Shown here piece by piece: positions 4,747 through 10,908 of a stretch of DNA of 36,931 nt. Every line of letters starts with the position of its first letter. Positions within the stretch are counted from its first letter, which is position 1. The notes beneath the pieces are model-generated. The model was not told the DNA's origin. It did no database searches and saw only the letters and a list, made by a program, of their open reading frames with translations. A program made the position numbers and the translations under genes. This DNA is from Alphaproteobacteria bacterium. Its GTDB lineage: Bacteria; Pseudomonadota; Alphaproteobacteria; JAJTHO01; CANGXP01. Where the stretch lies: contig JANMDF010000072.1 in NCBI GenBank assembly GCA_031376145.1, positions 1 to 36,931 of the forward strand, in the 5' to 3' direction.

Positions 4747-4836
4747 TACTGCTGGATAACAGGTTTCCAAGTTCCAAAAAGACTACTGCCTGGAATCAGG
4801 TGGCGTAATATCACATTGCTTTCCCCAAGCCCAAAA

Positions 4837-4867
4837 AACCTGGTGTTTCCCCACACCAGGTTTTTTT
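4837..4867. terminator. Bidirectional rho-independent terminator
   Basis: A perfect 10-bp stem (aacctggtgt 4837-4846 pairing with acaccaggtt 4853-4862) around a 6-nt loop. It is followed by a T7 run on the plus strand and preceded by an A6 run, which is a T-run on the minus strand. It can terminate both the flagellin gene and the minus-strand islet operon. Confidence 0.75.
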
Positions 4868-5003
4868 GGTTACACCGCTGGCATCAGTATGGTCAAAATT
4901 CTTTGCGAACTTTAATCCCGTACGGCTTTTGAGTGCTATATAGCCAATTGAATAATTGACTGCATACTTGCAGCAACACCGCGTAATTCCGGCCTGGCAG
5001 GCA

Positions 5004-5055
5004 TTACCCCCCTACGCAATCGTTGAGATACTTCCAGATTTGTATACTCGCGCAC
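5004..5055 (-). repeat. Degenerate third copy of the lepA 3' terminus (putative distal att remnant)
   Basis: The minus strand reads GTG CGC GAG TAT ACA AAT CTG GAA GTA TCT CAA ... GGGGGG TAA. The lepA end reads ATG CGC GAA TTC GGG AAT GTG GAA ATT CCG CAA ... GGGGGGG TGA. That is 20/32 ungapped nt, with REYTNLEVSQ against [10 protein letters not shown]. Both share the boundary heptamer tcgcgca and a C-run followed by a stop. An internal ~17-nt deletion is implied. On statistics alone this is only marginal; its position and orientation add weight. Confidence 0.4.
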
Positions 5056-5249
5056 CAGCCGTTCGGCCACTGCTTCACTGAGAGCACTGCGTCATGCCGA
5101 ATGCAGAAAGCATGCATTTGTAGGGTGTGGAACTGCTGCAAAATCGCCTGTTCAACCAGCAGTCCCTCAACGCGGGCGGCAATGGTGGTTTGTTCGGATT
5201 CGGGCAAGGTTTTGATGTAATCATCAAGGGAAATGGGGTTGTAGGACAT
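5004..5249 (-). pseudogene. Possible decayed XRE-type antitoxin/regulator ORF running into the lepA remnant
   Basis: 81-aa ORF with no SD motif. The N-terminus MSYNPISLDDYIKTLPESEQTTIAARVEGLLVEQAILQQ resembles the leader of small XRE antitoxins. The expected HTH appears only in the other two frames (AFGMTQ, then SALSEAVAERLV), which implies frameshifts. The 3' end is built from the lepA-like remnant read out of frame. Confidence 0.3.
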
Positions 5250-5260
5250 AAGCTAAATAA

Positions 5261-5704
5261 TTAAATTACAAGGCTAACATCAGGGATTTCCACAAACCAC
5301 TGTGCAAGGCGAGATATTTTTTTCTGGTTGGCTTTTGAGAACGTTCCCCAAACTTCGCCATGATAAGGATTTTCTGGTAGAGGATCATAACCAACCTGAA
5401 AACTCAATTCTCGCAATTTCCCAACATTAAGCAAAATTGAACCTGTAAATTTCGGATTACTGACAAACGTTTTTGCGTCAATTCCGTTTTGTTCAATCAG
5501 ATTTTTAAGATCAACGGACATGCCTCGATTGCCAATGCTCGAGGGCTTATAAAGCATAGAAGAAACTCGATGAGGAATGGCTGGTGGCGAAGGAAAGCAG
5601 GACTCCAAAGATACTCTTCTGATAACAAAGTGTTCATCAAGAATATCTTCATGATTGTGGGGAATTACTTCTCCATCAGCATTACGCGGCGGCGGCTTTA
5701 TCAC
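5261..5704 (-). CDS. Hypothetical 147-aa protein (candidate effector/toxin of the trio)
   Basis: GTG start at 5704, preceded by GGAGG 6 nt upstream. The start lies 23 nt inside the upstream ORF, which suggests coupling. I recognise no family. The sequence contains YKPSSIGNRGMSVD and PENPYHGEVWG. Confidence 0.6.
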   Translation of the reverse strand: MIKPPPRNADGEVIPHNHEDILDEHFVIRRVSLESCFPSPPAIPHRVSSMLYKPSSIGNRGMSVDLKNLIEQNGIDAKTFVSNPKFTGSILLNVGKLRELSFQVGYDPLPENPYHGEVWGTFSKANQKKISRLAQWFVEIPDVSLVI

Positions 5705-6194
5705 TGCTCGCCTCCACGGTTTCTGCGACCCATTTCAGAGCAGTCAAAAAATCATATTCTAAAAGTTGCTCCTCACCATCTTCACCCGTGCTAGGCGTAC
5801 AATGCCATGCTTTTACTTGGTTGGGAGCAATTATATGTAATTCGATATCTATGCCTTCTACATGCCACTCTATCTGCAGGTCACCGTTAAAACCTGGAAT
5901 AATGCTAGGCATTGTAGTATTCTCATTCGCACAAATAAGTCCTAATAGCTTTAGCGTAAAATGTGCATTAGGCGCACTTACAGGTCGCGCTCTGTATCCA
6001 TCCCATCCTACGGGAAGCTGCGCTAGGCTATAAACTCTTTCTATTGCATCATCAAACCACTCCAAGGGTGTAGTGGTCATCCTTAAGTATTGAGTATTAT
6101 TTAGGCGTGTAGGCACGTTTGAAGACCTATTGGAGCGGTCTATGGTAGATGTAGTGCAATCATCTGAGGCGGTACTATTAGAGTCTAACAACAT
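5682..6194 (-). CDS. Hypothetical 170-aa protein (WDGY-motif protein)
   Basis: The ORF track starts at TTG 6209. I prefer ATG 6194, which forms a TAATG stop/start overlap with the upstream gene and follows GGGGGAAG. Motifs are LPVGWDGYRARPVS and GFNGDLQIEWH, with an S/T/N-rich N-terminal tail. Confidence 0.6.
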   Translation of the reverse strand: MLLDSNSTASDDCTTSTIDRSNRSSNVPTRLNNTQYLRMTTTPLEWFDDAIERVYSLAQLPVGWDGYRARPVSAPNAHFTLKLLGLICANENTTMPSIIPGFNGDLQIEWHVEGIDIELHIIAPNQVKAWHCTPSTGEDGEEQLLEYDFLTALKWVAETVEASSDKAAAA

Positions 6195-7012
6195 TATTTC
6201 TTCCCCCAATGTCGGTGTGCCGCATCAGTGGTAATGGCATCAAAGTTCTGAACAATTAATTCACGCCCTTGTCCTAAAAATGCGATTGCGGCTTGTAGAG
6301 ATGACTCCTCAGGTTTTCCTCGAACAGTCATGTTTAGCCTTAATAATCTCTCGCCTTTTGCATTTACCGCGATTGCGCTTTCACAAATCAAACGTCCGCA
6401 AGGCTTATTATTTTTATCGTCTATTGTAATACGAAAGGTATGCTGAAAATCTGCCACTATCGTTTTTTTTTCAAGAAATGAAAAATCTAAAAATTTCAAC
6501 CATTTATTAGCGGTGATATTTTGGTTCTCAGGATGCTCTAACGGAATATGATTTATATAGGTAATTTCCGTTTGATTAATGTTTAAACCATTCCCATCAA
6601 ACCCCTTGAAAAATTCATCAAGCTTTCCAGCTTCTTGCGTAAATTTCGCAATGATACTTTCATAACGCGGATATGGTGTGTCATGCTCATCAATTTTTCG
6701 CCAATTATGCAAAAATCTATCATTCTGAAATTGAATGAGTTCATTTTGATCCCTTGATAGAAACCAAAAACGATCATGTGTAGCACCCGTTATCAAACCA
6801 AAGGGAGATTGTTCTATAGGAAAACCGAAATGCTCAAAAATTGGGGGGAGAGGATGATGCTCTTTTACATCTGGGTAATTTTCTTTATAAAGATTCCAAA
6901 CTTCTCCAGCATGAATTTGTTGATACCCTTGAGGGGTGCTGAACTGAATACCCAAAACAACCTCATGTAGAGGTGGTTTTTCATAATCTGGAAGGTGTGT
7001 GGGTCTACTCAA
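6194..7012 (-). CDS. TIGR04255-like uncharacterised protein
   Basis: The ORF track gives 6194-7045 with a TTG start. A better start is TTG 7012, with AAGGAG 7 nt upstream. The N-terminal PDYEKPPLHEVVLGIQF and the C-terminal FDAITTDAAHRHW resemble the TIGR04255 family as I remember it. Confidence 0.65.
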   Translation of the reverse strand: MSRPTHLPDYEKPPLHEVVLGIQFSTPQGYQQIHAGEVWNLYKENYPDVKEHHPLPPIFEHFGFPIEQSPFGLITGATHDRFWFLSRDQNELIQFQNDRFLHNWRKIDEHDTPYPRYESIIAKFTQEAGKLDEFFKGFDGNGLNINQTEITYINHIPLEHPENQNITANKWLKFLDFSFLEKKTIVADFQHTFRITIDDKNNKPCGRLICESAIAVNAKGERLLRLNMTVRGKPEESSLQAAIAFLGQGRELIVQNFDAITTDAAHRHWGKK

Positions 7013-7110
7013 AATAATGCTCCTTTTCTTTGCTGACTCTAACAAGAAAAAAGTTAAAAATATAGAGCCATTCAGTTATTTATATTGGCTGTGACTAAAA
7101 AGAAATGCAA

Positions 7111-7180
7111 TCTCACCCCCCCGTCTTCAGCACCTCAATAAACGCACTTTGCGGGATTTCCACATTCCCGAACGCGCGCA
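7111..7180 (-). repeat. Displaced copy of the last 22 codons plus stop of lepA (internal att-like repeat)
   Basis: A position-by-position hand alignment to 8468-8537 gives 65/70 identity. It translates as [22 protein letters not shown], against [22 protein letters not shown] in lepA. Confidence 0.9.
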
Positions 7181-7185
7181 GAATT

Positions 7186-8373
7186 TTAATTGAAATCCGG
7201 CATCACTCGTTTCAGGAATTCTTCAAATAACGGCACAGTAAAGGCTGTATCGCCGTGGGCAGGGCTGTAAATCATGCCTTTTTTGATAAGTTGTGCCCGC
7301 AGTGGCGCAATGCGGCTAACAGGCACATTCAATTTCTCGGCAATATCACCTGAACGTTGCGGCGTGCCGCCCAATTCCGCCAATGCTCGTACATAGCGCT
7401 TCTCGCTTGGCGTAAGGCGGTCGAAGCGTACACGGAAAAAGTCTTTGTCTAGTTTATTAATGGCGCGTGTTGTGGCGGTATCTATATCTTCCTTAGTGAT
7501 TTTCTTTGTGGATGCCACATTCCAGGCCTGATACCCCCACTCCTGCAAAAAATAAGGATAGCCTTTAGTAATATTCAGAATTTCTGTAAGTGCATCAGGG
7601 GTAAAGCTAACGCCTTGTTGCAGTACGGGCGCTTGTAGCGCCTGCATAGCGTCTGCTGCCAGTAATTGCCCTACTTGGGGGTAGGTAAACAGCCGTTCGG
7701 CATAAGACTTAGAATTGCCCGCTTTTCCCACCAATTGCGGCAGCCCTGCCCCCACCACTACAAGCGGCAACCCTTTTTGCGAGATGCGATGCACCGCCAT
7801 AATCAGTGCACTAAGTTCGGTTTCCTCTAAATATTGTAATTCATCAATAATAATGGCAATGCCCGTGTTGCGGCTGGCAGCAGCCTCACCTACGGCGATA
7901 AATAAATCGGCCAAGTCAAACTCTAAATCCCCGCTATCAGCCACCCCTTTTTCTGGTTCAGCAATGCTGAAGTCAAAAAGATCATATTTAATTTTGAACT
8001 TGCTGACAAAACTTTGCAGCACGCGCAATGCGCTTTTTACTTGCGTGCTAAGACGTTCCGCATTGTCAAGTCTTAGCAAAATACGCCGCAAGTGCGGCAT
8101 CAACAAGGCAGGGAGTTTTTTGTTACTTCTGTCTTCAATAGCCTCAATAAACGCTGTTTCATACCCCTTGGCGCGGGCGATATTCTCAATTTCATTGAGC
8201 AATACGGTTTTACCCACGCCGCGTAGACCCACCAGCAACATGCTTTTTTCGGCACGACCATTTTTAATGCGCTCCAACGCCACACGCGCCTGCTCCAGAA
8301 TTTCTTGCCGTCCTGCCAGTTCTGGCGGCGGTGTTCCTGCGCCCGGCGCAAAGGGGTTATGCTCTACGTCCAC
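7186..8373 (-). CDS. P-loop ATPase (ORC/Cdc6- or STAND-like AAA, PF01637/AAA_16 type) with a C-terminal wHTH-like region
   Basis: 395 aa with a GTG start. The N-terminal NPFAPGAGTPPPELAGRQEIL is typical of this ATPase class. Walker A is GLRGVGKT and Walker B is IAIIIDELQ. The C-terminal LTPSEKRYVRALAELGGTPQRSGDIAEKLNVPVSRIAPLRAQLIKKGMIY looks like a wHTH. Confidence 0.8.
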   Translation of the reverse strand: MDVEHNPFAPGAGTPPPELAGRQEILEQARVALERIKNGRAEKSMLLVGLRGVGKTVLLNEIENIARAKGYETAFIEAIEDRSNKKLPALLMPHLRRILLRLDNAERLSTQVKSALRVLQSFVSKFKIKYDLFDFSIAEPEKGVADSGDLEFDLADLFIAVGEAAASRNTGIAIIIDELQYLEETELSALIMAVHRISQKGLPLVVVGAGLPQLVGKAGNSKSYAERLFTYPQVGQLLAADAMQALQAPVLQQGVSFTPDALTEILNITKGYPYFLQEWGYQAWNVASTKKITKEDIDTATTRAINKLDKDFFRVRFDRLTPSEKRYVRALAELGGTPQRSGDIAEKLNVPVSRIAPLRAQLIKKGMIYSPAHGDTAFTVPLFEEFLKRVMPDFN

Positions 8374-8421: not shown

Positions 8422-8467
8422 GATTGATAATATACTATAATATTGCTATAAGTGGCAAGAGATTTTT

Positions 8468-8537
8468 TCTCACCCCCCCGTCTTTAGCACCTCAATAAAC
8501 GCGCTTTGCGGAATTTCCACATTCCCGAATTCGCGCA
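8468..8537 (-). repeat. Functional lepA 3' terminus, the proximal copy of the 70-bp repeat
   Basis: See 7111-7180. It covers the last 22 codons, the TGA stop and 2 nt beyond it. Confidence 0.9.
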
Positions 8538-10292: not shown

Positions 10293-10604
10293 TTAGCGAG
10301 GCAAGGCAGGGAAATCGTCCCCGCGCCATTTTCCATTCTGCTGTCGTTCTTCGCTGATTTTCTCCTCCAGCAATATCTTCATCAGCGATTGATACGGCAC
10401 ATCGCGTTTGTTGGCCATCACCTTCAGTGCATCCAGAAGATGTGCTGGCAGGCGAAGAGAGATGGTGTGGGTAGAGGGTTTGAGGTTTGGAAAAACAGCA
10501 GAAGCCGCGCTTGTCCAAGGAATATAATCCGTGGAATCATGGGTTTGCCAGAAGGCATCTTCTTCTGCCTCTGTATTAAAAAGTGGGGGGTGTTTTTTGC
10601 GCAT
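10293..10604 (-). CDS. brnA: BrnA-like (CopG/RHH-type) antitoxin
   Basis: Starting at ATG 10604: [28 protein letters not shown]...[34 protein letters not shown]. This is the typical BrnA layout. It overlaps the brnT 3' end by 29 nt. Confidence 0.7.
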
Positions 10605-10908
10605 ATATAGCCCTCTCTTTGCGGTGCATATCGCGCAGCGAAATGATGCGCAGAAAATTCTCTCTGACCGTGAAGACCACAAACAATAAACGTCCGGCGT
10701 TTGTTTGTCCCAAGGCGTAATACCGTAGTTCTGTTGAAGAGTGTCTTGCGTCATCCCCCACCACTAGAGGGCTGTTAAAAAATACTTCTTCAGCCTCTGC
10801 ATTGCGTACCCCATGTTTATCCAGGTTCTTGCGGGTATTGCCTTCATCCCACAAGAACCCTTCGGCCGTGAAGGGCAAAAAAAATCGCGACACCATTGTT
10901 GTATACAA
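10576..10908 (-). CDS. brnT: BrnT-family (DUF497) toxin
   Basis: FLWDEGNTRKNLDKHGVRNAEAEEVFFN...[43 protein letters not shown] matches the BrnT/DUF497 signature (WDxxKxxxNxxKHGV...ER...R.ISAR). ATG 10896 is an alternative start. Confidence 0.8.
   Translation of the reverse strand: MYTTMVSRFFLPFTAEGFLWDEGNTRKNLDKHGVRNAEAEEVFFNSPLVVGDDARHSSTELRYYALGQTNAGRLLFVVFTVRENFLRIISLRDMHRKERAIYAQKTPPTF

Follow-up and report, generated by a model that had tools for sequence, protein, structure and literature searches.

A mobile three-gene cassette built around a TIGR04255 protein, a probable relative of the predicted candidate system PDC-M32

What might three small, tightly packed and AT-rich genes, the first of them from the orphan family TIGR04255, do for the bacterium that carries them? 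The question is raised by positions 5261 to 7100 of an alphaproteobacterial contig (JANMDF010000072.1, assembly GCA_031376145.1), of which the whole stretch of 36,931 nucleotides was analyzed and is referred to below as the window. From the letters alone, an original prediction had regarded the three genes, here called g1, g2 and g3 in the order of their reading, as a candidate undescribed defence or toxin-antitoxin (TA)-like system. Our analysis shows that they constitute a single operon with coupled translation, whose genes move and evolve together, and indicates that the trio is best read, judging from sequence similarity, as a three-gene relative of PDC-M32, itself a predicted phage-defence candidate in PADLOC.

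We first describe the layout of the cassette. The close packing of the genes on the minus strand, the stop/start overlap between g1 and g2, the 23-nt overlap that places the g3 start inside g2, and all three Shine-Dalgarno-like motifs read on that strand as the original prediction had given them. The features are as follows:

6194 to 7012, minus strand: g1, 272 amino acids (aa), TTG start at 7012 to 7010, TIGR04255 family
5682 to 6194, minus strand: g2, 170 aa, ATG start at 6194, stop at 5682 to 5684
5261 to 5704, minus strand: g3, 147 aa from a GTG start at 5704
7013 to 7099, minus strand: AT-rich leader and probable promoter region, in which no scored consensus promoter lies; the low-G+C segment has its upstream limit here
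7020 to 7025, minus strand: AAGGAG Shine-Dalgarno motif, 7 nt ahead of the g1 TTG
6200 to 6207, minus strand: GGGGGAAG, a Shine-Dalgarno-like motif within the g1 3' end, 5 nt ahead of the g2 ATG
6192 to 6196, minus strand: TAATG, in which the g1 stop shares bases with the g2 ATG
5711 to 5715, minus strand: GGAGG Shine-Dalgarno motif within g2, 6 nt ahead of the g3 GTG

The longest open reading frames (ORFs) span 6194 to 7045 for g1, 5682 to 6209 for g2 and 5261 to 5704 for g3, and the starts chosen at 7012, 6194 and 5704 are exactly where the alignments of homologues begin. The NCBI annotation gives g1 in the same 272-aa form from the TTG at 7012. Its version of g3 is a 98-aa truncation from the internal Met50, which omits the 49 N-terminal residues; because these are conserved and include an invariant arginine, R29, the GTG at 5704 is the true start.

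The base composition of the cassette sets it apart from its surroundings. G+C content is 40.2% across the trio (37.7% in g1, 44.4% in g2 and 41.0% in g3) against 52.1% in the rest of the window, and at third codon positions it is 29 to 38% in the three genes against 55% in lepA. The foreign composition noted in the original prediction is therefore borne out, although its figure of 32 to 33% fits only local stretches of g1. The low-G+C segment extends from about 5258 to 7100, indicating that the foreign DNA comprises the trio and its leader only.

Conservation as a unit was the point on which the original prediction was most exposed, and it was found in two scans. The first, seeded with g3, covered contigs of one genome for each of 185,579 species and returned 64 loci, 57 of which had enough upstream DNA; g1, g2 and g3 occur in the same order and on the same strand in 54 of these 57. 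The second, seeded with g1, covered metagenomes and viral contigs and returned 85 loci, and the complete trio was present in 65 of the 67 with enough downstream DNA. Accordingly, g1 is kept in 119 of the 124 testable loci, which argues that it is not dispensable. The order holds in g1-seeded loci where g1 identity is only 34 to 37% and g2 and g3 are barely detectable, and the same register of the g2/g3 overlap recurs in 72 of 122 loci. Homologues number at least 471 for g1 and at least 40 for g2, with at least 218 close homologues for g3. With homologues in the hundreds for all three, the ORFs are more than chance reading frames.

The most distant case comes from a Mycobacterium paragordonae plasmid (NZ_CP025547; locus L154, 4983 to 6722), on which genes for 261, 180 and 142 aa all overlap. 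The first belongs to TIGR04255 and is 27% identical to g1. The second is homologous to g2 (hhalign probability 97%), and the third is probably homologous to g3 (hhalign probability 66%, E 5e-5).

Two incomplete loci were also observed. A metagenome-assembled genome (MAG) of Chloroheliaceae (L022, 3700 to 3830) carries g2 and g3 without g1, with a short tandem repeat upstream that translates as repeated 'VCNRLG'. On the chromosome of Nitrobacter sp. TKz-YC01 (L038, 7600 to 8440), g1 is absent, g2 is reduced to its last ~55 codons, and g3 is apparently intact with all of its invariant residues; either this locus decayed recently or g3 is not lethal by itself.

The relationship to PDC-M32 emerged from g2 and g3. 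The g2 of the window matches the C-terminal domain of the PADLOC profile PDC-M32A (positions 257 to 372, 4e-8). Within a distant set of 48 trios (144 sequences), 47 members match PDC-M32A, with a best value of 3e-16, where only g2 sequences would be expected to match. Eleven of the 144 match PDC-M32B (best 7e-6), and a follow-up scan places these matches on g3 sequences only. No PDC-M32B match was obtained for the window g3 at E <= 1, and no PDC-M32A match for g1, even in the distant trios. In both arrangements an A-like gene precedes a B-like gene. There are clear differences: PDC-M32 has two components (A with 375 and B with 123 profile positions) and the present cassette has three genes; the N-terminal 256 aa of PDC-M32A have no equivalent in g2, which does not match the full profile; and g1, unlike the PDC-M32 components, has no counterpart among the PADLOC models. 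The original prediction had found no match to any named defence system, and this stands for g1; because g2 and relatives of g3 match PDC-M32, the trio as a whole is not wholly unmatched. PDC systems were predicted through 'guilt-by-embedding' in BREX, DISARM and type I restriction-modification (RM) operons (Payne et al., bioRxiv 10.1101/2024.01.29.577857), and our literature search found PDC-M32 named in one survey only. What is new here is the three-gene variant; the predicted candidate to which it is linked is already catalogued.

We then turned to the individual proteins. The assignment of g1 to TIGR04255 was confirmed with 74.9 bits against a cut-off of 30 (8e-21), over residues 21 to 281 and profile positions 2 to 252 of 252, and its homologues carry the source name 'TIGR04255 family protein'. 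No match to g1 was found in Pfam, PHROGs or PADLOC, and the literature search yielded no paper that mentions TIGR04255. In the predicted structure of g1 (predicted local distance difference test score, pLDDT, 87.5), two S1-H1-S2..S5-H2 repeats follow an order that fits a tandem fold resembling the TATA-binding protein (TBP). Foldseek yielded a single match at E <= 1e-3 (probability 0.98), to a human Pol III initiation complex; the matched chain has 178 residues and is presumably TBP itself. By hhalign, comparisons of g1 with human TBP, of its N-terminal with its C-terminal half, and of g2 with g1 were all non-significant. In a set of 130 sequences, fifteen residues reach a conservation of at least 96% (E17, Q23, E60, R81, Q94, Q96, N103, W104, R105, Y114, Q147, E149, Y152, N154 and R207); the conserved residues are polar and are placed on strands in the model. 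In both RNase HIII and the anti-phage toxin RnlA, the substrate is bound by TBP-like domains (PMC8266594, PMC3710099).

A full HMMER scan resolves the g3 family into 990 clusters at 50% identity. The best 150 relatives are all short (77 to 225 aa), and the g3 domain covers almost the whole protein. R29, S63 and H115 are shared without exception by 118 sequences, 117 of which (99%) also have R98. The g3 model (pLDDT 93.9) has weak structural matches in PDB to several proteins with an ADP-ribosyltransferase (ART) fold, namely Tpt1 (6e3a; template-modelling score, TM, 0.41), a RES toxin (8gug_A; TM 0.33), DarT (7omx) and AvrPphF (1s21); two fungal NADases (8r15 and 8r17), which are not counted here among the ART-fold matches, also appear in this list. 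In BFVD, weak matches were obtained with two viral RNA 2'-phosphotransferases (TM 0.45 and 0.36) and one PARP. The invariant Arg-Ser-Arg-His set, together with this weak resemblance to the KptA/RES branch of the fold, suggests that g3, a small enzyme-like protein, may use NAD+.

The g2 protein is the fastest-evolving member of the trio. A variable N-terminal region of ~45 aa is followed by a conserved 'LPVGWDGY...GDLQIEWH...DIELH' domain, in which W64, P96, E109, W110, H111 and E118 are the conserved residues. Its C-terminal 'AAA' was considered as an ssrA-like ClpXP degron, and this idea was dropped. Of 123 loci, 64 have the tail; nearly all of them belong to the clade with the g2/g3 overlap, and clades without the overlap are also without the tail. 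Moreover, the nucleotides of the tail (window 5682 to 5704) also encode the conserved N-terminal 'PPPR' motif of g3. Since it is confined to the overlap clade, the tail is probably a by-product of the overlap.

The original prediction had allowed that the genes might instead belong to a clear phage-structural or metabolic family, and none was matched in Pfam or PHROGs. The distribution of the trio points to mobility. The g3-seeded loci are scattered sporadically over Alpha-, Beta- and Gammaproteobacteria, Planctomycetota and Chloroflexota. Five genuine prophages, which possess genes for terminase, portal, tail and integrase proteins and an S24 repressor, carry the trio. The trio is also found on plasmids: directly downstream of a MobF relaxase gene on the conjugative M. 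paragordonae plasmid, which is the only TIGR04255 match in PLSDB, and on a 16.2-kb sequence (L002; ENA ERZ26692472) in which an 8.2-kb plasmid, with genes for a 489-aa protein, MobA, RepA_C, BrnT/A and the trio, is repeated head to tail about twice. One carrier locus adjoins an RM system, a Mu-type transposase and an integrase, and on the Croceibacterium chromosome the trio lies beside rpsL. Among 531 flanking ORFs of 58 loci, no flanking family was shared by more than three loci. The cassette is thus horizontally mobile and self-contained, and its adjacent co-transcribed small genes with a sporadic, mobile distribution give it a layout like that of type II TA loci.

How, then, might the three proteins work together? 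We consider it roughly an even chance that 5261 to 7100 is a mobile three-gene conflict cassette, TA-like or abortive-infection-like, that is related to PDC-M32. Under this reading, g3 would be the enzymatic effector, whose target, to judge from its model, might be a nucleotide or nucleic acid that it modifies or depletes with the use of NAD+. The fast evolution of g2 and the overlap of its 3' end with the g3 start suggest that g2 would be the cognate binding partner of g3, as a neutraliser or adaptor. On the strength of its modelled tandem TBP-like fold and conserved polar sheet, g1 may bind a trigger or a nucleic-acid substrate, and such binding would couple sensing to the release or targeting of g3. 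The TA or defence reading of the original prediction is plausible and is now better grounded; toxicity and immunity are what we infer from it.

Several results weigh against this reading. The named structural matches of g3 are all non-significant (Foldseek E > 0.7, TM <=0.45), hhalign gives a probability of 0.2% for g3 against Escherichia coli KptA, and Pfam and PDB profiles detected no similarity of g3 to a known ART family. A classical R-S-E ADP-ribosyltransferase (R30, S63, E117) was rejected: E117 is found in only 91 of the 118 sequences (77%) and is elsewhere replaced by K, Q, A, V or L. No family could be assigned to g2 or g3 from Pfam (39, 36 and 144 members) or, for the window proteins, from PHROGs and NCBIfam, and no PDB match came from profile searches, whether the alignments of the two were narrow or wide. 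For g1, the TM values against the Pol III complex chain are low (0.26/0.36), and Bet v1/START, EspG and MOG1 folds follow weakly in the Foldseek list. No DNA-binding antitoxin domain, whether helix-turn-helix (HTH), ribbon-helix-helix (RHH) or AbrB, was found by Pfam and NCBIfam in g2 or in 36 + 48 relatives. With g1 and g2 as tblastn queries, none of 50,697 phage records yielded the trio, and with g1 and g3 it was found in one of 72,556 plasmid records. Around the 58 loci, the 150 nearest neighbours are mainly housekeeping genes (M16 peptidases, MetK, DctP, LepA and EF-G), together with two integrases and one transposase. Enrichment near known defence genes, which the original prediction had proposed as a check, was absent there: eight PADLOC models were matched, by one neighbour each. 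Finally, the intact g3 beside a truncated g2 in Nitrobacter sp. is awkward for a constitutively lethal toxin.

The closest competitor is that the cassette serves plain addiction through post-segregational killing, or is a selfish TA module with no anti-phage role, with g3 as toxin, g2 as antitoxin and g1 as accessory regulator or chaperone. It would account for small overlapping genes with a sporadic distribution, for a cassette that stands alone among housekeeping genes like many TA loci, for carriage on the small mobilisable plasmid beside BrnT and on the conjugative plasmid after MobF, and for the Chloroheliaceae locus in which g2 and g3 occur without g1. However, a module of this kind would not be expected to be almost absent from sequenced plasmids, to lack a detectable HTH or RHH autoregulatory domain in g2, or to keep g1 so consistently, and PDC-M32 relatives are embedded in RM, BREX or DISARM systems. 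We therefore regard plain addiction as unlikely.

The housekeeping neighbours without defence enrichment, and the helix-grip folds (Bet v1, StARkin and PYL) among the weak matches of g1, could also reflect a non-conflict accessory function, for example g1 as a Bet v1/START-like small-molecule binder that serves a niche metabolic or stress pathway alongside its two small partners. Such a function is improbable in view of the lack of a conserved genomic context of any kind, the foreign composition, the carriage by prophages and plasmids, the link to PDC-M32, and the rarity of the trio, with 64 loci from all the species scanned. A role as counter-defence or RNA-repair cargo, in which a KptA-like 2'-phosphotransferase (g3) would clean damaged RNA ends with g1 as RNA-binding subunit and so guard the carrier from RNA-cleaving toxins, is also improbable: RNA 2'-phosphotransferases are the best-named structural resemblances of g3, nucleic acid is bound by TBP-like domains in RNases, and some copies reside on prophages, but no locus has linked ligase, 2H phosphoesterase, kinase/phosphatase or Hen1 genes, the similarity of g3 to KptA is non-significant, and a fast-evolving, overlapping g2 suits a neutraliser better than a repair subunit.

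If the conflict-cassette reading is kept, comparison with known systems helps to place it. A functional precedent for a module of three genes in which the toxin is an ART is CmdTAC (PMC11618068). The present trio shares with CmdTAC and other TAC systems the compact three-gene form and, in the proposed reading only, an ART-fold effector held by a labile partner while a third protein senses infection (PMC11618068). It differs in gene order, has no detected sequence similarity to them, and has no SecB-like chaperone: g1 has no SecB match in Pfam, and its model resembles a TBP-like fold rather than SecB. In addition, the ART assignment of g3 is a weak structural resemblance only. Among the structural neighbours of the g3 model, KptA/Tpt1 and the RES enzymes (Xre-RES, MbcT) are the best-named; they are similar in size and rely on Arg, His or Ser without an invariant catalytic Glu, and KptA and RES proteins have been treated as phosphate-directed NAD+ users (PMC9503650). 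They differ in that g3 reaches TM values of 0.33 to 0.45 with non-significant E values and has no match to the Pfam families RES or PTS_2-RNA. The partner proteins are unrelated, and there is no Xre antitoxin in the trio. RnlA and LsoA, in which TBP-like domains are fused to HEPN, offer a likeness: a toxic enzyme goes together with TBP-like modules in an anti-phage TA setting that is mobile, as proposed for the trio. However, the TBP-like domains of RnlA are fused to the toxin, whereas g1 is a separate protein; the effectors also differ, and no sequence similarity was detected.

A wider proposal is that TIGR04255 marks a so far unrecognised, phylum-spanning three-component immune or addiction class, from Proteobacteria to Actinomycetota, in which a stand-alone, tandem TBP-like g1 would sense or recruit nucleic acid and would control a new minimal branch of NAD+-using ART-fold effectors with an Arg-Ser-Arg-His tetrad via the 'WDGY' adaptor shared with PDC-M32A. 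We consider this generalization doubtful at present. The operon nevertheless provides a first functional context for TIGR04255, an orphan family present in hundreds of clusters, and the same context for the families of g2 and g3, which have no Pfam, NCBIfam or PHROG match. It also shows PDC-M32 to be part of a far broader family of modules, in some of which there are three genes. Should g3 prove to be a new NAD+-dependent effector under a TBP-like sensor, this would be a new pairing of effector and sensor in bacterial immunity and TA biology. Four g3 residues can be named for mutation (R29, S63, R98 and H115), and cultured hosts are Rhizobium sp. Root274, Afipia massiliensis DSM 17498, Rhodoplanes azumiensis, Croceibacterium aestuarii and Hirschia litorea.

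Finally, we analyzed the surroundings of the trio in the window, for which two further features are needed:

7100 to 7180, no strand assigned: remnant duplicate of the lepA 3' end, immediately upstream of the trio; context, outside the cassette
4830 to 4869, no strand assigned: bidirectional intrinsic terminator with 17-nt arms, an A-run and a T-run, shared with a convergent flagellin gene; probable transcript end

According to the original prediction, the trio lay inside an islet bounded by att-like repeats, next to an ATPase cassette and a decayed XRE-like gene. The repeat search of the window found a sole long direct repeat of 81 nt (88% identity, 7100 to 7180 and 8457 to 8537), which is a duplicated lepA 3' end; the final 21 residues of LepA can still be read from the inner copy. 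The repeat brackets only the AAA_16/ORC-like ATPase gene at 7186 to 8373 and leaves the trio outside, so the islet was rejected as the vehicle of the trio. Neither the ATPase nor the XRE-like gene is a conserved partner across loci, and the ATPase was rejected as a fourth component since it is no recurring neighbour.

The bracketed 1.28-kb cassette contains the ATPase alone, with a C-terminal MarR-like winged HTH and without an integrase, and resembles a site-specific insertion at the lepA 3' end. In a Phyllobacteriaceae MAG (L041, 2875 to 6477; LepA 74% identical), the trio is located ~50 nt from the lepA 3' end, where it is convergent with lepA rather than co-directional and the repeat is absent. 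The recurrence of the trio beside the lepA 3' end suggests that this site is a recurrent insertion hot spot.

Downstream, the bidirectional terminator named in the original prediction is real, but it lies ~390 nt past the g3 stop and beyond an ORF at 5004 to 5249 rather than at the end of the module. This ORF of 81 aa begins 12 nt past the g3 stop and has a host-like G+C content of 51.6%. By eye, its N-terminus and out-of-frame pieces ('AFGMTQ' and 'EAVAERL') resemble a frameshifted XRE/HigA-type HTH gene.

Upstream of lepA, at 10293 to 10908, two overlapping minus-strand ORFs of 110 and 153 aa resemble a BrnT/BrnA TA pair. A weak alignment (24% identity, E 3e-4) links the 110-aa ORF to the PF04365 BrnT gene adjoining the trio on the 8.2-kb plasmid.

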